Of a stretch of DNA of 64,000 bases, positions 4,624 to 55,580 are shown one piece after another; the stretch's first letter is position 1, and every line of letters begins with the position of its first letter. The stretch comes from Eledone cirrhosa (lineage: Eukaryota), in NCBI GenBank assembly GCA_964016885.1, contig OZ024744.1:58094001-58158000 (forward strand). The letters are read 5' to 3'. The notes below the pieces were generated by a model. That model was given only the letters and a program-made list of their open reading frames with translations. It made no database searches and was not told where the DNA came from. Position numbers and translations under genes: made by a program.

Positions 4624-7000
4624 CATGGGTTGGAAAAAATTAATTGGTTAAAAATTAATTGCAATTAATTGGAACATGGTTGAACATCATAGCTCTTTTA
4701 TTGAGAGAAAGAAATTTTTTTTTGTTATTTATCCGGTTAACGGTTATACCTCTATAAACCCACGATACCCTTTTAGTTGCACTCTTATTCCGATCTTAAC
4801 AACATCTGGTTACTAATTCCCCGGCGTTATTCCGATTATATTCTTGTCGTTCATTTTCTAAAATCACTGTAGTTTAAAGTCCTTCTCGTAGCCGAAACGC
4901 GAGACAGAGGGTACGCCTTTCTGCGTGCACCTAAAATTATTTGCTTCTCAACACTGTCGATCCACTACCTTCGCGTGTAGGTTTCTGTGTTCGATTTCCC
5001 CGGTGATAACTACTCATTCGCACGCCTCGTTCACAGAAGAATTCCAAAACAACTTCCTTTTTAACGTTCTTATGTAATCACGATCACTAATCTAGATTTT
5101 AAGTACTGAGAAATATTTTTATGATTATATAAATAACCATGTCTTCAAATGAACGAATCGTAAAAAGATATTTCAATAGAATAGACGATGACACAGGCTT
5201 TTGGAAATGCAAATGCGGAAAAGAGTTAAGCCAAAAGAAAGGAACTGGTTGGAGTAATTTGATGAATCATGTCAAAATCCAACATCCAGAGCACTCAAAT
5301 TTACAGGAAAACAAACAACAAACATTATCGAAATTTGTCACAGAAAATTCTTCTAAAAGTGGTACAGTGAGTCGTTCTGCATTAAACGTGTATGGCTGGA
5401 TTGAATGGGTATGCATTAGTTTAAAACCGTTTTCTTTTGTCGAAGACCCATTAACTCAAAAGTATACCAATTTGGGTTCTATGACCAATGTTACTCTGAA
5501 GAAATATATGAGTAAACTCACTTTAGAAGTAGCAAAAAAGATATCGAAAGAACTCCCAGGAAAATTCGCGCTAGTTATCGATGGCTGGAGTAAGGGGTCG
5601 ACACACTTCGTTGGGCTTTTTGCCTCCTACCCTTGGAATGATAAAAAGGGATACCGGTCAGCTTTGTTATTATTTTCACCACTGATGAACGAAACCTCAT
5701 TTACTTCTTCCGACCACGTGGATTTTATTGAATATACGTTAAGTCTATACGAAAAAAGCTTAGAAAATATCGTTGCGATTATTGGTGATAACGCTGAAGT
5801 CAATAAATCAATAGCGAAACTGTCTGGTATCCCTTTGATTGGTTGTGCTTCCTATAAATTTAACTTAGCAGTTTCTGCTTATTTAGAAAAGGAGAAAATT
5901 CTACTCAATAAAATCAACGAGCTGATGGGAAAATTGAAATCTTTCAAACTTACGGGCAAATTAAGAGAACAGACAACACTAAAACCCCTTCAAAGAAATA
6001 TAACTCGTTGGTCAAGTACATTTAATATGATTGAAAGGTTTATTCAAATTGAATTTTTTATTGTGGGGGGGGGGGTCTTTTAAGGACGACGCTAAACTCA
6101 TTGATTATCTTTTGACACCTCGGGAACGCAAAGATCTCAGAAACCTGGAAGAGAATTTGAGAAAACTGCGTTCAGTTACAAACGCTTTACAACGAGAAGA
6201 AATTGATTTGTGGGATGTTCGAGTTCTCTTCAATGAAATACTCATCTTTTAACTATATGAAGAATTCAAAAAATACTTGCTGCCTTCGGCAGATATCGTT
6301 CATTGCTCTGATTTCGAGAATGGTATTGTTAAAATACTTCAAAAATCAGAAGAAAGGCTTGATGTGCTAGAAGTACACGCTTTACACAGATTGGAATTCA
6401 CTGAAATATCGAAAAATTCAGACTCTTTAGTGGGAGACGATGATTTCGCTTCAATTTGTCTGAAGAAGCGCAGAGTAAATGCAAATTTATCTAAGAAATA
6501 TCCAGATTGTAGATTTATTCTACCGACGTCAAATATAATAGAGCGTTTCTTTAGTTCAGCGGGATACGCTTTTAATGATTTTCGCCAAAGCTTATCACCT
6601 TTGAATTTAGAAATGCAATTGTTTCTAAAGGCTAATCGCTCTTACTGGGATAAAGAATTAGTGTCTACGATTTTCAATCAATCATAAATTGCTTTTTATT
6701 TGCAAATAGTTGCTTATTCATAGTTTAAATTAAATATTTTGCTAATTTCTCTCTCGGAATTTAAAACTAGAACTTTTTTTTCTCTCTATTTTTGCATCAT
6801 CGGAATCTCCTATGTTCAAAACATAGAAATCCGAAGAAATTCTTGAAAAAAAACCCAAAAAAGTACCAAGAGTACGCTGCTGCAACAGCAATTAATTGCA
6901 ATAATTGATTGGTTAAACAGACAAAATCCAATTAATTGATTGGGTAAAATTTTAATTGATTGGGCAAAATTTTAATTGATGTGGTTATACCCAAGCCCTG
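4624..7000 (+). mobile_element. hAT-superfamily DNA transposon, full length (about 2.4 kb)
   Basis: 8-bp TSD GGTATAAC at 4616-4623 and 7001-7008. Imperfect TIRs CATGGGTTGG / CCAAGCCCTG (8 of 10 match). Subterminal AATTAATTG repeats at both ends and an internal transposase. Confidence 0.93.
5139..6687 (+). pseudogene. hAT transposase (about 515 aa) with one frameshift and one in-frame stop
   Basis: BED-like finger (WKCKCG..GWSNLMNHVKIQHP), catalytic IDGWS and GDNA motifs, TRWSSTFNMIERF, and a C-terminal dimerisation motif PTSNIIERFFSSAG..RQSLSPLNLEMQLFLKAN. Frameshift at the G11 run (6065-6075) and TAA at 6250-6252. Confidence 0.9.
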
Positions 7001-22363: not shown

Positions 22364-24338
22364 CACATATCCGCTTTGTACGGCTTTTGGAGGAAGGAGT
22401 GACCAGCAGTACGATAAAAATAAAGTACCAGTAATGAACTGGGTAATTGCTGGCCTTGTGCCAAAAGTAGAAACAATTATTACGAAAAGGTGTAGCAGAG
22501 AATCCCGCGTGAACTAACAGCTCGGGAGGAAACTGCTTACCTCGAAGATTCATTCGCCATCGTTCTTGTCAACGCTCCGTTTAGTTGGTATTTGTTGGTC
22601 TACAGTTAGATGAATGGCGCACAAAGGGTTAATGTTTATTGACAAGAAGTTTTTTTATTAATAAAAGACGGGTTAAAGCGACCTACAATGTATCATTCTG
22701 CGTTGATGTTAGCGGTTTTCGTTGTCAATGGGTTTTTTGGACGGCAAATTCGAGACCCTTCTGTTTCTCTCTTAATAAACTGACTACTATGAAGACCATT
22801 CCATGTTGGCCTGCGGATGGAAATGCAGAACGCAAAGGTGAAAGTTCAGTAGTAATGCGAGTCCTATGTAGCAGCAGTATCATTGACATTGCTTACAACG
22901 TGTGCTTTCACCCTTAACAGGATCTTCTGAAACCAAAAAAATCAATATGTGAACGCGAAGTAAATATTTCGAAAAACGTTGCAACCGAAGGAAAACAGGA
23001 AGACGATACTTTGGTTCGTAAAGACGTTCCCTGGCAATGAACAGAAAATAGCGAAGAAAATACGTCATCAATGAAAACCATGTTTGTCATAATGTCGTAA
23101 TGCAGACATACACATAATATAGGGGCGCGACCTTATAGCTATGTATCTATCTAAAAAGACAGACTAATAGAGAGAGATAACCGGCGCCAAACACGCCTTT
23201 AACAACAGAAAATTGAAAAATAAAAGCTGCAGTTAATATCTTTAGACCGCAAGGAATATATAAATGCAAGTTTGAAGTCAATGTGGATTTGTATAGACTT
23301 TGCAAAACTTAAAATACACAGACAATTTAAATTTTATATATATATATGTATATATATACATATATATTATAACACGAAGAGCAAATATCTAATAAAAGTT
23401 TATGTAAACAATTTCTGCTTTCACCTTTATACAGGTCTTCTGAAACTCAGATCCTGTATAAGGGTGAAAGTAGAACTTTTAATCTGTGCTGTTAATAATA
23501 ATAATACATGCACGCATATATACACACATACATACTTATATACGATTGCATTCATGCATACATTCATTCATGCATGCATGCACATACATACATAATTATA
23601 AATATGTCTCATCCTTATGGTTGTGGCTCTGGGGCCTCAACGCAACCTTCACACTTCACATTTTAAACCATTTCTTGTCTTCAGGCACTCTTCGGGATGA
23701 ATAGGGTTGATGAACCCTGAGTTCTCTTCCAACAGGATTCCTTATAGTTTTCGTATTTACAAGACATTGGTCGAACCGGTACTACAGTAGAAGACACGCC
23801 CGGAGTGCCATGCCAAAGAATGAGACAGAACTGTAGGACAAAAAAATGAGGCGCTCCCTTTTTTCACCATAATCTGTCCGACCATCGCTGGTCTGGGACT
23901 AAATATTAACTACAGTAACAACAATTAAAAAAGACGAGAAACATAAAATATATGTATTTGTTTTTTGCGAAAAGTGAATTGAAAATTAGACGGCTGTATA
24001 TATTTTTACTCGACGAAATTTTTTTTTTTTTGTTTCGTCACAGTAATAATAGTTTTTGCAGGATTTGAACAATGATTATCACAACAGTGACAAACAAGGA
24101 TTGCAGCTGCAGCTATAGAATACTGGTCTCCTGTGGATATGGAGCTCTTGGCGGAAAGTTCTGTCAATAATTTATGTTTTGCTGGACTTGTTCGAATGGC
24201 AAGTTACAGGACATTTGGGTAGAGGCACAATCAGGTTCAATGTGGTTGGTTCACCTTTCTCTAAATTAGTTGTGGTAGGAAACAAAATCAATCCATTCTT
24301 CGGTTCTTCTGTGTCGCTAGCACAAGCCTATTCTGTTG

Positions 24339-24758
24339 CTAGCACATATGTGCTAACATACATTCCATCTTGTTTTGTTCTGAAGCTAGCATTGCCTGTT
24401 CTGCAGCTAGCGCAGCCTGAGTCGATTGGTGTCGGCCCACTGTGTATTTACAAGGCGTGTAAACATGGTGTCCGGGGCAGAGGCAATGACCGTGGCAAAG
24501 ACCTTGAACGTGAATATAACAAGGTGGAGGAGGTGGAGGTGGGCAGTGACAATGACAATGACTGTGGCAGTGACTGTGACAGTGGTTGTGACAGTGACCG
24601 TGGCAGTGACCATGTCCGTGGCAATGTCCGTGACATCCGTGACATCCGTGTCCGTGACATCCGTGTCCATGGCAATGCGCATGTCCATGGCAGTGATGAT
24701 GGCATGGTGCATGTGTATGCATAATAATGGAATCGGTTACAGAATCACAACAACTCAT
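24339..24758 (-). CDS. Putative His/Cys-rich (C-H-G/S-H repeat) protein, 139 aa, single coding exon; possibly metal-binding or structural
   Basis: Uninterrupted ORF. The repeat varies at third codon positions (TGC/TGT, CAT/CAC, GGA/GGT) while keeping C, H and G in this frame. ATG lies in GAAAC-ATG-A context. Non-repetitive N- and C-termini, and no recognisable TE motif. Confidence 0.7.
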   Translation of the reverse strand: MSCCDSVTDSIIMHTHAPCHHHCHGHAHCHGHGCHGHGCHGCHGHCHGHGHCHGHCHNHCHSHCHSHCHCHCPPPPPPPCYIHVQGLCHGHCLCPGHHVYTPCKYTVGRHQSTQAALAAEQAMLASEQNKMECMLAHMC

Positions 24759-24944
24759 GTTTCTGCTAATTCACACAAAATGTCCAAATAGATAAGATGT
24801 ATTTTCTTTCTCCTGCGAGTAGACGAAAACTATTTGTTTTTTGGAAAACTAGACTTTGGTTTACAATCTCCTTTCAGATTGCGAAAGCCTTAACAAAAAC
24901 CTTAACAAACAGTTACGTCTAATAGCCTGATGGTAAATGAAGAG

Positions 24945-25040
24945 ACGATGACGTTTGATGGATGTGTTTCCACGTCAATCGACTTTCTAGTTGATGTTAA
25001 AATGTTCAAACTTTCCAAGGCGGACCATTATGATGTCATA
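24945..25040 (-). promoter_or_regulatory. Cluster of CRE/ATF-like motifs upstream of the His/Cys ORF
   Basis: TGACGT at 24949-24954, CCACGTCA (TGACGTGG on minus) at 24970-24977 and TGATGTCA at 25031-25038, about 190-280 bp upstream of the ATG. Confidence 0.35.
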
Positions 25041-25110
25041 AAACGTATGATACGTGTGTGCGTGTGTCTGTGTATGTATCTATGTGTGTGTGTATGTGTG
25101 TAATGTATGC

Positions 25111-33789: not shown

Positions 33790-36360
33790 AAGGAGTGCTA
33801 GAGGAGGGTCACCATTGAGAGTGCCCTGGACTCCAATTGAGCCAGTGACTGGGAGCGCGCCTCTTCTATTTCACCCCACTCGCCCTCGGCCTCCCCAGCT
33901 CTGGCGCTGACTGAGGTGGCCTGTTGACTGCAACCGTTGTCAAGGCCAATGTTTCGTCCTTTGGGCAAGCACCCATTCCAAGAGTGCCGAAGGATCCACG
34001 CCCCCTGCTCTCAGGTGCCTCCATTCCTCCACCCCTGAGGCCAGCGCCAAGCATTTGCGTGACCGCGTAAACACTAAACTAATCATGGGTGATGTCTCAG
34101 CTGCACTCAGAGTGGTTGCTTCAGAGGACACTGTCCTCCAACCCGCCGAGAATGTCCTGGCTGCCCTGACCTCCGATCCATACCCCACCTGCTCCTTGTG
34201 GCTTCCGACGCAGACATCATGTCTGCCATCAAGTCCTTCCCAGCAAGCAGCAGCGATGGTGTTGATGGTCTCTGACCTGGCCACCTCAAGGAGTTGCTAT
34301 CCCTCCTCTCTGCTGAGGCCAGGCGCTGCCTTCTGAGTGCAATTGTGGTACTCACTCATAGACTTATCCATGGCGCCCTGGATCCTCACACCTGAGGCCC
34401 CTTTTTTTTGGCTAGCCTGATCGCTCTCAGGAAGAAAGAGGGTGGCATAAGCCCTATCGCTGTGGGCAATGTCTTCCGGAGGCTGGCTGCTAAGGTGGTC
34501 TGCAGGTCCATAACACCTGAACTGGGTGAGGAGTTCAGTCCAGTGCAACTGGGTGTCGGCATGTCCGGTGGCTATGAGGGGGCCGCACATGCAACCAGGC
34601 AGTTCTTCAACAGCTGCCCACCAGAACTGGCATCCAAGGAATCTAGGCACCACATTGTCAAGCATGACATGAGGAATGCTTGACAATGTGGCCTCCCTGT
34701 AATGTGGAGCCCTGAGCATGTTCCTTGCTGCTGATACGGTCATACCTTCTGCCACTGGGGTCCAACAGGGTGACCCTTGGGCCCCCTCCTGTTTGCCCTT
34801 GGTATAGACCACATTGCCCGGAGTATCATGGCCCCTCTCAACGTTTGGTACCTGGATGATGCTATGTTGGGCGGGCCTGTGGAGACTGTCTGCCATGACT
34901 TTCAATCGGTGGTTCCTGCCTTGGCAGGAATCGGCCTCCAGGTCAACTCGTCCAAGTCGGAGGTGGTGAATGTCAACCATTATGCTGAAAGCTTTGCAGC
35001 CTCCATCTCGGACATGCGGTCCATTCTCCACCAAGTACAGGTGACCTCTAAAGAGGATATCCTCATCTTCGGGTCACCGATCCACCCACTGGCCATCCGC
35101 TCCATCATCAGGTCCAGGCTCCAACAACTCCAGACCACCATGAGCCGACTGGACTTGATCAACAGCCACCCAGCTCTCTTCCTGGTGAAGAACTGCTTCG
35201 CCATACCAAAGCTCCTCTACACCCTTCGCAGCACTCTGTGCTACACCCACACATCTCTCCTCGCTGACCTCGATACTTGTATCCGAGAAGCAGCTGAGGA
35301 GATATGCAATGTCAGATTTGATGACATTGGATGGCAACAGGCCACTTTATCTGTCAGATATCGTGACCTTCGCCTCCGGTCCCCGATCTTGCTGGCATTA
35401 CCAGCATTTCTTTCATTGGTAACCTCATGCCGCATCCTCGTAAGCAGGGTTCTCCAAAACACAATGGAACCCTCTGTGATCAGGGAATCGGTTGAACTGA
35501 GCCCAGTAGACGTCCGTCCTCCTTCTCCCTCTGCTGACGTCAAGTCCCCCCCCCCCAAAGCATTTGGGATGCCATCCAGTGCATCCTGGCCTCAAACAGG
35601 CTCACGCACCAGTTCGACCAGCACCGCTTTGCCTGTTTTCGCGCGGCCTCCAAACCCCACAGTGGTGCCTGGCTCCATGCCTTGCCCTCATTCTCCACTG
35701 GCACGCAGCTGAATAACAATAGCCTGCAAATCAGCGTTTCCTTGAGGCTTGGCCTCTGGATCTGCCAGCCACACCAATGTCATTGTGTATCAACCGTGGA
35801 CTCTTTCGGCCTCCACCCGCTTTCCTGTTGCCACAGTGCCGGCCGCCTTCCACGGTGAGGTCATAAAGCATGGTTTGGACGATGCAGGCTTCCCTTCCCA
35901 CCTTGAGCCGGTGGGGCTGGACCGAGGGGACGTCAAAAGGCCAGATGGTATGACCATCTTCCCGTTCCGTGGTAGCCAACCCCTCATCTGGGATGCCACT
36001 TGCACCGACACTTTCTGCAGCCACAACCTGGTGCAGTCTGCAACTAACTTAGGTACTGCTGCACGTCAGACTGAGGAGGCCAAACTCTCCAAGCACAGGT
36101 CGCTCTCCAGCAGGTTCACAGTCATGCTCTTGGCAGTGGAGATTTCTGGTGTCCTTGGCCCTAGGGCTATCTCCCTATTCACCACTATAGGCGCTGAGCT
36201 TGCCAGCCGCAGGTGTGAGCCTCGCGAGTTGGAATGGCTCTTCCAGTGCATCTCTCTTACCATCCTCCGGGGAAAAACCTTCTCCATTCTGTCTGCCAGG
36301 GCTGTGGGGAGGCCACCATGTGGGGCCCCATTTGCTCACCATACGGATTAAGATATATAA
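33790..36360 (+). mobile_element. CRE-clade non-LTR retrotransposon (RT, CCHC finger and REL endonuclease), frameshifted
   Basis: GC-rich block reading LIALRKKEGGISPIAVGNVFRRLAAK, PVQLGVG, GVQQGDP/LGPLLFAL, WYLDD, SGAWLHALP, CHC, LEPVGLDRGDVKRPDGMTIFPF..LIWDATCTDT and LAVEISGVLG. Confidence 0.92.
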
Positions 36361-49872: not shown

Positions 49873-52800
49873 AGAGAGTTGCTCTGAGGAGATGGTGGTC
49901 CAGCCAACATTCTTCCCCTCTCATACAATGTATGGATCTGACATCCCACAAATTGTAAAGTCTTATAACCACATAATCAATATGCCAATGACATGGACAT
50001 ACGTACATGCATACATACATAGACTCACCATACATACATACATTTGCCATACATACATACACACATGCACATGCACACATAGACACACACTTGTTTACAT
50101 TTGAAAGCATTAGTTGTGTCACTTTCTGAAAATTTTAAATGCTGTTTTTTTTAAATAACTGATTTGATGATCATGGAAGTCTTGACCAGCCAATGAGTTT
50201 CAATTAATTTAAAAAAAAATTTTTTTTTTAAATTGAAGGAATTTAGTATTATATGTTATATACAAATTATGATACTTTTCAATCACATCCCGGTAACTGC
50301 TTCTGCTAGCAGGGTAAACTTAGTGAGGGACTAGATTCTTGGAGAGAAGATGAGTACTGTCTAGCATTTCTAAGGCTCACTGAAATGCCATGATGGATAC
50401 ATAGTCAAACATCTAAAATGGTATTCCAATGACTGGCTGTATCAATTATGGTAACTTGATTGATTGATTGGTGTGTTTTAGAGTGGATATTTCTAAATAT
50501 GAAAGCTGTAATTGATGGAGGAGGATTGTGGTTATCTGTTCTTCTAGTTGAATAATCATCCAACTATGGAACCACAACTAATTATGAAAACTGTAATAGA
50601 TGGAGGAAGAGTGTAGCTGACACCACATCTAACTTTTTATTATGTTAAAAAAAAAAAAGAGCTGAAAGCAAACTTCAAATGTTCATCAGACATTTGGAAG
50701 CTAAAAAAAATATTTTTCTTCTATTGAAATTGTTGATGCCATATTTTTAATGAAAGGCACTGTGTTCCGATTAATTATGAAAGTAATCAAGAATTAGAAT
50801 ATTTTTAACAATAAAACTAACTTTCTCATTACCAAGTTGATGTTTGGAACATAACTTAACAAAGGCACATAAAATTATGGGGGAAGGTTATTTTTTAGAT
50901 AAATATAATCACTTTAAAATTAACAGTTTTGTATCATCGAACCAGGGGTGGTTTCAGGTGGTTTAGTACCAAAGGAGTTAAAAGAACAGGTTTTTCTTTA
51001 ATTAAAACAAAAATTTAATCAGAAATTTATTACAGTAAAGGGTATATTTTTGTGTATAAATATATTTTGTTTGCATTTGTAATTGTATTTTTGTTTTGAA
51101 ATAAACAGAAACTAAAAAAAAATAGCATTCAAAATTTTGGGAAAGTGACACAACTAATGCTTTCAAATGTAAACAAGTGTAATGTGTGTGTGTGTATGTA
51201 TATATGTAAGAATGTATGTATGTATTATGTTTGTATGTATTATGTATGTATTTATTGTTTGTATGTATTATGTATGTATGTATATATTATATGTATGTAT
51301 GTATGTATGCATATATGTATGTATGTATGTATGAATGTATGTATGTATGTATTATGTTTGTATGTATTATGTATGTATATATAAAATAAACCTGTTACCA
51401 GGTACGAATCTCAGAATTTGTCAACTCTTATTAATGGTCACACTGCTCGCTCTCCTGTGAAATGTAATGTAAAATGCCATTTTTTTCTTGTCTCTCCATC
51501 TTCCCGGTCCATTCATATATCCGTATCATCGCCCAGAATCCAATCTTTGCTCTTTCTCAATGCTATTCTATAATTCTGTCTGGTTGTTCTAAATAATCTT
51601 CTTGTATTTTAAAATCCCATTATTCGCTTATTACTGTTATATGCTTGTCCAATTATGCCCAAAATTCGAGGATTTTATTTAAACCTTCTCTCTAACTACC
51701 CCATACCCCTCCCACCCGCCCCCATTATTATTTGGACCAATCATAAGTCAGCGGCCTATGCTATCACTTCTCCTGGTTGCTTTTTGATATGATGGATGGA
51801 CTAAGGAATTCTGGAGAGTCTGAAAAATCTGGACACTCAGTGACAATGCTAAAGATAAAGACAAATTCACCTCATGCTGCTGGACGGAAAGGCAAGGACT
51901 ACTCCTCTTTATTTCGGCCGCAGATGGCCAACATAACCCCAACCCCATCCCCCTCACCCCTCCCCACGCCCCACAGTTCCCACCCACCAAACGCAACCCA
52001 AAACTTCAGAGTTGGTACCATGAATGTAGGCACCTTAAAAGGTCGCTCTAACAAGGTTGTAGAAATGCTTGAACGTAAGGAGGTTGATGTTTGCTGTATC
52101 CAAGAGACCAGGTGGAGGGGTGGGTCTGCTAGATTCATTGTGGGTAAAAAACGATGCTATAAGCTTTTCTGGGTGGGAAATGACAAGGGGCTGGGTGGAG
52201 TAGGAATCATGGTAGCAGAAAAATGGGTAGATAAGATAATAGACGTAAATAGAGTGAACGACAGAATAATTAAAATAAGACTTGTCCTGTGACAGTAATA
52301 TCTGCGTACGCACCCCAATCCGGACTGCCTGGCGCTATAAAAGACGGATTCTATGAGACATTGATGCTCTCTACCTCCCAAATAACCGATAGTGACTACA
52401 TAGTTATCGCTGGCGACCTAAATGGTCATGTTGGACAACATTGTGATGACTATGACGGAATCCATGGAGGCTATGGGTTTGGTACTAGAAATGAGGAAGG
52501 CTCCAGAATCCTGGAATTCTGTGACGCAAATAACCTAACTGTCTGTAACACAAACTTCAAAAAATGAGACAATCACTTGATCACCTATAGATCAGGGGAA
52601 CACGCCAGTCAGATAGATTATATCCTTACCAGAAGACGTGATAGAGTGTCTGTTGTAAACACTAAATCCCTCCCCCATAAAGAATGCACCTCCCAACATA
52701 AACTCATAGTCAGCGATCTCATAGTCAGGACAAGACTTACTCGACAACAGAGGAGAAAAATATGGAAGCTAAAAGACCCCACAGCCAGAAATAAATTTAA

Positions 52801-55580
52801 AAGCATATTATTGATGCTTTTGACAGTAAGGAATAGCAATTAGAGTCGTACGATATAGAGGAACAGTGGGAATTCCCGAAAGCTAACCTGCTGAAGGCGG
52901 CAGATGAAGTCTGTGGCTGGAGCAGGCCTATAGGCAGGAGGAGAGTAACGTGTGGTGGAACAGTAAGGTGGAGGAGTCAATTAAGGCCAAAAAGCAGGAT
53001 TGGAAAGTATGGAGGGATGGGGGAAGTAGAGAAGACTATCAAGTGGCCAGGAGGGAAGTTAGGAGTCAAGTGTACTTCGCAAGAAGAGAAGCAGAGGAAA
53101 GAAAGTTCAAGCATGTTCTACAACGCGAGGAACAAAAACGTGTGGTGTTCAGGATTGCTAGGCAATGTGTCAAGGAAAACCGTGATATTGTCGGGGAAAA
53201 GTGTGTCCTTAATGATGATGGTGTACTTGCCATCACTGATGCTGATAAGAAGGTAGCTTGGAAGTGTCACTACGAAAGGCTACTAAATGAGGAGAATAAA
53301 TGGGAGAAAGACAGTCTCCCACACAGCAATCCAATAGAGGGACCAGCAGTGCTAGTTAAAGGTAGTATAATAAGTAAAGCAATCAAAGATATGAAAACGG
53401 GTAAGGCGGCTGGGCTTTCGGAAATAGTTGCTGAAATGCTGAAAGCATCTGGAACGGTGGGACACACTATGGTCACCCGGATAGTAAACAAAGTCGTACA
53501 GAATGGGGTTGTTCCGAAGGACTGGCGTAGCAGCATCATCATTAACTGCTACAAGGGTAAAGGAGATGCCCTAGATAGGGGTAACTATAGAGGCATTAAA
53601 TTAATTGACCAGGTCATGAAGGTCACAGAAAAAGTAATAGCGCAACTAATCAGAGAGTGAATTGATCTAGATGAAATGCAGTTCGGGTTTGTGTCAGGTA
53701 AAAGTACCACAGACGCTCTTTTCATTGTACGACAACTACAGGAGAAGTACCTAGCTAAAAGTAAACCCCTATACTTAGCTTTTGTTGACTTGGAGAAAGC
53801 CTTCGACAGAGTCTCCCGCTCCATTATCTGGTGGGCTCTTAGAAAACTAGGTGTTGATGAATGGCTTGTGAGAGCTATACAAGCCATGTATAAAGAAACA
53901 GTCAGCAAGGTTAGAATTAACAACGAATATAGTGAAGAGTTTAGCGTAAAAGTTGGTGTTCATCAGGGTTCCTTTCTTAGCCTACTATTTATTATTGCCC
54001 TTCAGGCTATAACAGAGGAGTTCAAGACCGGCTTCCCATGGGAACTCCTATACGCAGATGATCTAACGCTCATAACTGAATCAATGGCTGAACTAGAGAA
54101 GAAATTCCAAACATGGAAGCATGGCCTAGAATCAAAAGGCCTTAAAATTAACCTGTCTAAGACTAAAGTTCTAGTTTGTAGGAAGGAAAATAAGGCACCA
54201 TTCCCATCTGGGAAATGGCCATGCTCAGTGTGTAGGAAAGGAGTAGGCAGAAACTCCATTTTATGTCCCAAATGCAAAGTATGGGTGCATAAAAGATGTA
54301 GTGGGATCACAGGTAAGCTAACTAAGAATATAGATTTTATATGTGGCCAGTGCTCTGGTGCAATAAGTAGCAGCAAGTGCCCACAGAATACTAGCTCATT
54401 CCATTGCACAGATGGTTCTATAGAAATAGTGGACACCTTCCGTTACCTGGGGACAAAATCAGCAGTGGTGGAGGGTACTCTGAAAGTACAGTAGGTAGAG
54501 TCAGAACTGGATGGAAAAAGTTCAGAGAGCTTATACCACTATTAGCCGCTAAAGGGTTCTCTCTAAAAATGAAAGGCAGGCTGTATGATGCCTGCATACG
54601 AACAGCAATGTTGCATGGCAGTGAGACCTGGGCATTGTGTGCAGAGGATATACGCAGACTGGAGAGGAACGAAGCTTGCATTCTCCGCTGGAACTAAGGG
54701 AGAAATGTAGGAATAAGAGGGATCAGATGTTGTTTACTCGAGAGAAGACTACGTTGGTATGGTCACGTGATGCGCATGAAAGACGACAGCTGTATAAAAA
54801 AGTGCAGGGCAATAAAAATAGACGGTAGCTACGGAGTAGGCAGACCCAGAAAAACCTGGGATGACTTGATAAATTCCGACCTCACACACTTACACCTCTC
54901 CAAGACAATGTCACTGGACCGAGATCTTTGGCGCTACGCAGTAATACAGAAGTCCCACCTTGCCTAAGTACAAAGCGAAACCTACAGTCAGTAGGCACCT
55001 CTTAACAAATATATACCCCACTCCCACCCCATCTAAACCACCCCTTTCAATGTAAAGTTATGTTGGTACCACAACATCCAGCCCGAAACAAATGAGGACG
55101 TGTAGGTGTCACGACAAAAAAACACAGTCCACGCTGTAATGTGGCCGTGTAGGTAACACAGTAAAAACCTCCCAGTTCCACACTGTAAATGTGGTTGGTG
55201 TTAGGAAGGGCATCCAGCCGTAGAAAACCCGCCAGACAGTCCTATGCGAGCAAGACAACCAATCTTGCCTCAAATGGGAAAATTCCCGTCCAAACCCATG
55301 CAAGCGTGGAATATGGACGTTAAACGATGATGATGATGATGATGTATGTATTTATTATGTTTGTATGTAATATGTATGTATGTGTAATGTATGTATGTAT
55401 GTATTTATAATGTAAGTATATGTATGTATGTATATATTATGTATGTATGTACGTATGTCCATGTCATTGGCATATTGATTATGTGGTTATAAGACTTTAC
55501 AATTTGTGGGATGTCAGATCCATACATTGTATGAGAGGGGAAGAATGTTGGCTGGACCACCATCTCCTCAGAGAAACTCT
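49873..55580. repeat. Inverted duplication: 49873-50152 versus 51113-51380 plus 55345-55580 (right arm split by a LINE)
   Basis: Reverse-complement matches of ctctgaggagatggtggtccagcc..gacatggacatacgtacat and of cacacttgtttacatttgaaagcattagttgtgtcactttc. Confidence 0.88.
51385..55343 (+). mobile_element. Nearly full-length RTE-clade LINE (single ORF: AP endonuclease, RT and PHD-like finger), disrupted
   Basis: VGTMNVGTL, VCCIQETRW, SAYAPQ, AGDLNGHVG, QIDYIL, FVDLEKAFDRV, GVHQGS, LLYADD, CSVC..CPKCKVWVHKRCS..FICGQC and GRPRKTW. Stop at about 54967, then a 3' UTR and (GAT)n tail. The 5' boundary is approximate. Confidence 0.93.

Follow-up and report, generated by a model that had tools for sequence, protein, structure and literature searches.

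The window gene and its predicted product

The window, by which we mean the whole 64,000-nucleotide stretch of Eledone cirrhosa DNA analysed here, carries on its minus strand an open reading frame for a small His/Cys-rich protein, flanked on both sides by sequence that it shares with a gene elsewhere in the same genome. The features are as follows:

24339..24758, minus strand: 139-aa retrogene ORF (35 His, 23 Cys), ATG to TAG, the subject of the selection tests
24675..24758, minus strand: conserved N-terminal segment, aa 1-28, common to all eight family members and weakly to the database protein P0023
24543..24704, minus strand: His/Cys low-complexity core, aa 19-72, with 11 of the 12 CHxH units; predicted disordered, and a putative Zn-binding and disulfide tract
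24522..24542, minus strand: poly-Pro hinge, aa 73-79 (7 prolines), peculiar to the window copy
24345..24443, minus strand: predicted helix, aa 106-138, kept in 5 of the 8 family ORFs and in P0023
24759..25043, minus strand: 5' region derived from exon 1 and the beginning of exon 2 of the parent (promoter/5' UTR), with 72% identity to parent exon 1
25026..25043, minus strand: CRE-like palindrome with a TGACGTCA core, one mismatch in the window copy, at the 5' edge of parent homology
24010..24338, minus strand: decayed relic behind the stop, a duplicated helix-end piece followed by parental C-terminal coding sequence
23840..24010, minus strand: 3' region common to parent exon 4 and the sequence downstream of it (likely 3' UTR)

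A sequence-only reading of this DNA had described a 139-residue minus-strand product with 35 His and 23 Cys, a run of seven prolines, a second Cys/His cluster after it and a distinctive tail, which is rich in Ala, Gln and Glu. The recount was exact, and all of these elements are present. His and Cys together make up 42% of the protein. The absence of a signal peptide is also borne out, as judged by a Kyte-Doolittle proxy rather than by SignalP: the N-terminus is non-hydrophobic, and the best 8-residue mean within the first 30 residues is 1.16. AlphaFold2, supplied with an alignment of eight sequences, finds no secondary structure in residues 1-105, where confidence is low (pLDDT 41-53), and predicts a single helix at residues 106-138 (pLDDT 81-97). 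This tail had been called amphipathic. A helix is indeed predicted there, but its hydrophobic-moment peak lies at 154 degrees, compared with 91-111 degrees in four paralogs, and amphipathicity is less clear in the window copy than in those four.

The surroundings are transposon-rich, as that reading had proposed: 3 of the 13 window ORFs scanned match zf-BED, reverse transcriptase or endonuclease families in Pfam. In DNA contigs of one sample (three runs, with sequence identical to the window), depth is ~3-5 over 23706-25045, whereas the flanks reach hundreds to hundreds of thousands. Set against these repeat-rich flanks, the low depth argues that the window gene is single-copy DNA and not the high-copy repeat that the earlier reading had wished to see checked. 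Single-copy depth, together with the conserved ATG, N-terminus and helix, rules out a spurious ORF derived from a transposon or satellite. Elsewhere in the window, at 5133-6687, 33911-36351 and 51747-54697, lie a decayed hAT-like transposase that has a BED finger, and pieces of non-LTR retroelements (endonuclease, reverse transcriptase, PHD); for the element at 33911-36351, which has zero Pfam matches, the label is tentative.

A four-exon parent and seven intronless copies

DNA and protein searches of the same genome found seven other full-length relatives, so that the window gene (contig C28) is one of a family of eight loci, the others being on C1, C3, C4 (two), C5, C9 and C12. One of these, at C4:375.75-375.81 Mb, has four exons and a spliced ORF that is open for 583 aa. 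Its exon 1 ends at a GTAAGT donor (375,746,025), exon 2 spans C4:375,796,949-375,798,568, exon 3 is a 35-nt micro-exon (C4:375,805,684-718) and exon 4 starts at C4:375,809,219. The three introns (50,923, 7,115 and 3,500 bp) are all GT-AG, and the 583-aa frame is open only when the micro-exon is included. The acceptor of exon 2 (375,796,949) is a NAGNAG tandem acceptor, and differences at junction 1 among the copies fit use of both NAG sites; at the exon 4 acceptor (375,809,219), a second AG lies 7 nt into the exon.

The remaining seven loci (the window, C5, C3, C9, C1, C12 and a C4 copy, C4a, 168 Mb from the parent) are intronless and are dispersed away from the parent at seven contigs or sites. 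The window copy aligns to the parent mRNA from -289 to +166 over junction 1 and from +529 to +810 over junctions 2 and 3, with no intron in either alignment. The 50,923-bp intron 1 is absent at junction 1 (near 24833), and no introns interrupt the relic behind the stop at junctions 2/3 (near 24182) and 3/4 (near 24161). Freedom from introns over all three parental junctions identifies the window gene as an intronless retrocopy of the four-exon parent. It is therefore not a singleton, as had been assumed, but a truncated copy with an inherited upstream element. All seven copies cross junction 1, and five (window, C5, C3, C1 and C12) cross junctions 2 and 3 in single alignments; the C4a alignment is patchy there, and C9 has that part deleted. 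By eye, neither a poly(A) tail nor a target-site duplication is clear around the copies, which are old and microsatellite-flanked.

All eight proteins have the shared N-terminal motif followed by the His/Cys tract, five have the helix, and several end in PCGPC or PCCPP repeats. The parent protein contains 178 Cys and 216 Pro in 583 aa, with 46 PCCP and no CGP. CGP triplets number 10 in the C5 tail, 7 in the C9 tail and 2 in C12; the window protein has neither CGP nor PCCP. It is a short form, from which ~75% of the parent protein is gone, including the Pro/Cys block and the C-terminal tail. The Pro/Cys block is also missing, with similar breakpoints, from C3 and C4a, whose frames are open. Moreover, ~25-30 nt of 5' sequence common to all copies is absent from the present-day parent. 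The similar breakpoints and this 5' stretch suggest that some copies may derive from an older isoform or by way of another copy. The seven copies are not all independent, and an intronless copy may, after retroposition, have been duplicated at the DNA level. The tree of the 5' region is star-like (support 19-73) and does not resolve the order of the copies.

Haemocyanin genes of molluscan type also occur in the same genome. In the copies on C1 the repeated units number seven, as is usual in octopods, which suggests an octopod source.

Selection on the window copy

A genome query with the non-coding exon 1 alone returned the parent and the same seven copies, with zero dead copies, these counts being lower bounds. 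Each of the seven retains the homologous ATG and 139-242 open codons. In a neutral-decay simulation with rates taken from the 5' region, the window ORF survives per lineage with a frequency of 0.014-0.037 when indels are included and 0.137 when they are not. Zero frameshifts are found in ~260 nt of non-repeat coding sequence, where 5'-region rates predict 3-7 (P0 0.0007-0.05). Behind the stop, 283 nt of the parental coding tail can be aligned; 8 of the 13 gaps there have lengths not divisible by 3, and each of the three frames is interrupted by stops.

A dN/dS check of the kind that the sequence-only reading had called for, made here on family members, gave values below 1: over 48 ungapped codons in five genes, omega is 0.16 for the family and 0.09 for the window branch (LRT against 1 = 13.95, p=1.9e-4). 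The signal weakens once CpG-touched sites are removed, with 0-fold against 4-fold divergence giving p=0.005, 0.42, 0.09 and 0.045 in the four window pairs, significant at 0.05 in two. Compared with the 5' region, a yardstick that may be constrained itself, divergence at 0-fold sites is lower at the 0.05 level in just one of the four pairs. Among the private changes of the window copy, 15 of 25 are non-synonymous. Based on these comparisons, the retrogene and its intact ORF appear to be under purifying selection, the evidence being weaker when CpG sites are left out, and it is very probable that this selection acts at the protein level on the window branch.

Selection had originally been argued from the repeat units, said to differ mostly at synonymous positions. 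That observation stands, as 143 of the 205 differences among the 12 CHxH units fall at codon position 3. As evidence of selection it is partly circular, because the units had been chosen for their amino-acid sequence; a (CACTGY)n array on C1 likewise reads CHCH and varies at a single position. Better evidence comes from the codon-model test and the open frame in all seven copies. The C1 array itself (C1:253.958-253.962 Mb; L009-L015) is a hexamer array of >3 kb. One of its strands reads (CH)n, the opposite strand reads as a Gly/Ser/Asp repeat free of stops, and similar arrays lie at C26:7.52 Mb and C2:309.68 Mb. The C1 array may be a satellite or the exon of an acidic repeat protein.

A CRE-like palindrome inherited with the 5' region

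A palindrome with a TGACGTCA-type core is found at all eight loci, and in the seven copies it precedes the ATG by 256-285 bp. No other 14-column stretch of the eight-locus 5' alignment is as well conserved (pairwise identity 0.93; next 0.78). In three copies (window, C1 and C12), homology ends at the palindrome or a few bases from it. CRE sites are not testis-specific. CREB and CREM bind the TGACGTCA sequence, the CRE, and the targets of CREM in mouse spermatids include Odf1 (PMC10454534). Retrocopies may inherit a downstream parental promoter when an mRNA begun at an upstream start carries it into the copy, as reported for ~3% of expressed mammalian retrocopies (PMC4772013); here, 7 of 7 copies keep both the element and an open frame. 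From its position and conservation, we propose that the palindrome is likely a promoter element, a place in the 5' UTR being the alternative.

An exact 16-mer of the palindrome has 35 matches in the genome, compared with 2 for a control. Four belong to this family and most to a tandem unit on C5 in which no gene is evident. Of the other matches inspected, one lies ahead of a phosphorylase retrocopy and two ahead of a duplicated first exon, while the rest have no clear gene. A role as a general spermatid mark is unsupported, most of the other matches being without a clear gene. The C5 unit (C5:12.55-13.13 Mb, L082-L099; also on C1091 and C1240) recurs at ~17-kb spacing and has a perfect 18-bp CRE-core palindrome followed by a TATA-like box, with no clear protein-coding gene in the 20 kb inspected. 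The phosphorylase locus (C5:112,692,658-112,695,165; L107:659-3166) is an intronless 835-aa glycogen phosphorylase ORF ~245 bp downstream of the palindrome. A second, 61% identical copy with a long open frame lies in divergent orientation at C5:112,681,697-112,682,284, and a paralog occurs in exon-like pieces at C12:46.99 Mb. An intronless phosphorylase with a CRE-type palindrome upstream may be a second germ-line retrogene. The duplicated first exon (C2:296,720,627 and C2:297,030,084; L075, L076) comprises 72 codons, ends at a GT donor ~190 bp downstream of the palindrome and has zero Pfam matches.

Relatives in databases and comparison with known proteins

The gene had been described as an orphan, which holds against the databases apart from one distant homolog, but not within its own genome, where it has seven relatives. 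That homolog is P0023, a 134-aa ENA protein that is colinear with the parent over the N-terminal motif, Cys cluster, helix and downstream segment. Its helix is identical at 27 of 55 positions (pairwise E=3e-11; library E=7.4e-4), and it lacks both low-complexity expansions of the family. This colinearity argues that the family core is older than the present genome. P0023 is the one match kept of ten in a library of 1.84 billion; the other nine were dismissed by eye as heptad or low-complexity look-alikes.

Low complexity lowers the sensitivity of database searches for this family. The window protein had only a chance T4SS match in Pfam and 0 matches among 5.8 billion proteins. Against the same 5.8 billion, the full family alignment gave 11 compositional His-rich matches (8000 candidates scored; 3 of the 11 inspected) and a helix query gave one unrelated match. 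The ESM Atlas held no usable match for the window protein or P0023, PDB sequences no credible match, and metagenome contigs no P0023 locus. Six supplement files of an Octopus maya testis paper contain no matching annotation, a comparison in which unannotated contigs would not show (PMC6341066).

Mollusc and cephalopod metallothioneins (alpha/beta1) resemble the family in being intracellular and Cys-rich (17% in the window protein). Cephalopod metallothioneins, however, have 69-73 aa and CxC-based domains (PMC7826182), whereas the proteins described here have 139-583 aa and CHxH units. Membership is ruled out by these lengths and by the absence of the beta1 motif from all eight. Squid beak HBP1-3 are similarly His/Gly-rich and disordered, but they are built on GHGxY pentapeptides, and the family is Cys-dominated and without a signal peptide. 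The absence of GHGxY/H pentapeptides from all seven copies rules out a squid beak HBP. A cysteine-rich protamine is ruled out as well, since Arg and Lys make up only 2% of the window protein and 2-9% across the family.

Drosophila Mst87F and Mst98C (Pfam PF03940, MSSP), which a review links to mammalian ODF sequences, are small, intracellular and Cys-rich, and their Cys-Gly-Pro repeats recall the C5 and C9 paralogs. MSSP proteins, in contrast, lack the His/Cys tract, helix and N-terminal motif of the family, and the window protein lacks CGP. MSSP is the only sperm-related Pfam match of the C5 and C9 tails (E=0.023 and 1.5), at 14.7 and 8.9 bits against a curated cut-off of 21.2, and the C5 tail matches collagen better (19.7 bits). 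With the best score below the cut-off and no match for the window protein, MSSP membership is rejected, and the CGP likeness to Mst87F is most likely convergent. Mammalian ODF1 and SMCP have repeats of the PCxPC/PCCPP type and are single-copy genes, unlike the retrogene family here. Both are Cys/Pro-rich spermatid structural proteins that are down-regulated without CREM (PMC10454534). No alpha-crystallin or other Pfam domain was found in any of the eight family ORFs scanned, the parent being scanned as its exon-2 ORF, which rules out an ODF1-like small heat-shock protein. By analogy, the family may work like Mst87F, ODF1 and SMCP, yet it is not a member of their families.

Proposed function and mechanism

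The expectation of a selected, intracellular, lineage-restricted Cys/His protein gene agrees with these results, and a sperm structural protein was among the functions then offered. With somewhat more belief than doubt, and largely by analogy, we propose that the family encodes a spermatid-made, Zn-binding and later disulfide-crosslinked structural protein of cephalopod sperm-tail accessory fibres. The parent would be transcribed in germ-line cells, since only mRNA present there can give rise to heritable retrocopies. Transcripts begun upstream of the palindrome would be reverse-transcribed by LINE machinery, such that a bZIP factor of the CREB/CREM type would find a usable promoter in each copy. 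In the protein, the disordered His/Cys tract may bind Zn2+ and so shield its thiols, while the helix would pack chains together. Later loss of Zn would permit inter-chain disulfides that stiffen the fibre, as in mammalian outer dense fibres. The window copy is a short form that keeps the His/Cys tract and the helix.

Zinc has reportedly been seen in such fibres in both groups, the title of Baccetti's 1976 study naming mammalian and cephalopod accessory fibres. That study is cited for zinc in the fibres by a source describing a Zn-thiol-disulfide cycle in mammalian outer dense fibres, in which bound Zn protects the cysteines until oxidation stiffens the fibres (PMC7589359). Octopus sperm have 9 outer dense fibres (PMC11753710). 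Further background comes from PMC6321397, PMC12584897 and PMC11931252. A germ-line source mRNA, the failed metallothionein and HBP motifs, the weak score of the CGP tails against MSSP and the literature on zinc in fibres together favour a sperm-tail structural protein. Parental germ-line transcription, however, proves neither a sperm role for the protein nor expression of the window copy.

The same chemistry could serve a germ-line protein at another site, such as a perinuclear or acrosomal scaffold, an SMCP-like mitochondrial capsule or a spermatid zinc store. Retroposition and the CRE evidence apply equally to this reading, and the PCC/PPC block of the parent, with its 46 PCCP, resembles SMCP. 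SMCP sits in the mitochondrial capsule (PMC11974682). The zinc literature points instead to accessory fibres, and we regard another germ-line site as unlikely. Alternatively, the parent could be functional and the window copy a processed pseudogene, recently dead or silent, whose frame is left over from an earlier functional period. The loss of ~75% of the parent protein, the decayed tail, the mismatched CRE core, the 15 non-synonymous changes among 25 private ones and the weak CpG-free tests would all suit a dead copy. That it is one seems to us quite improbable, given a window-branch omega of 0.09, a coding region free of the expected frameshifts, and sisters C3 and C4a, whose frames are still open with that block gone at similar breakpoints.

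Somatic functions are less probable still. A metallothionein-like chelator of Zn, Cu or Cd, for example in the digestive gland and amplified for metal handling, would account for the 42% His+Cys, the disorder and the missing signal peptide, and some gastropod metallothioneins do carry an added His-rich module (PMC7826182). We give this idea little credence, as the beta1-domain motif is found in none of the eight proteins, which have 1-4 CxC each, the TGCRCNC metal-response element in none of the eight upstream regions scanned, and metallothionein Pfam matches number zero; repeated retroposition, moreover, needs germ-line mRNA. A somatic intracellular structural protein like the keratin-associated proteins, in skin, sucker or beak epithelium, is suggested by the Cys/Pro pentapeptide-like repeats of the parent (178 Cys and 216 Pro in 583 aa). 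The repeat segments, however, have no keratin-B2 or other Pfam match at E<=10, the GHG[PLV][YH] motif of HBPs occurs in none of the seven copies, and the family has spread by retroposition rather than as a tandem cluster. This is the reading that we consider least probable.

Significance

We return to the sperm-tail structural protein as the preferred reading. A bolder form of it, possible but doubtful at present, is that of a self-propagating retrogene family: with the promoter in the copied 5' exon, copies would be live at birth and would seed more, and would encode the Zn-binding high-sulfur proteins of cephalopod accessory fibres. CGP/PCC-type sperm-tail proteins would then have arisen independently three times, first in insects and mammals and then in cephalopods, where the His/Cys zinc tract would be a novelty.

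In a literature search that took in few subscription papers, we found no gene assigned to cephalopod accessory-fibre proteins, and within that search the retrogene family is undescribed. It provides a case of retrocopies that all keep the parental regulatory element and reading frame, and in which the repeat modules (His/Cys tract, helix, Pro/Cys block and tail) have been retained or dropped copy by copy. Cephalopods evolved outer dense fibres like those of mammals, and the family offers eight candidate genes with unique peptides for the proteins that may build them.
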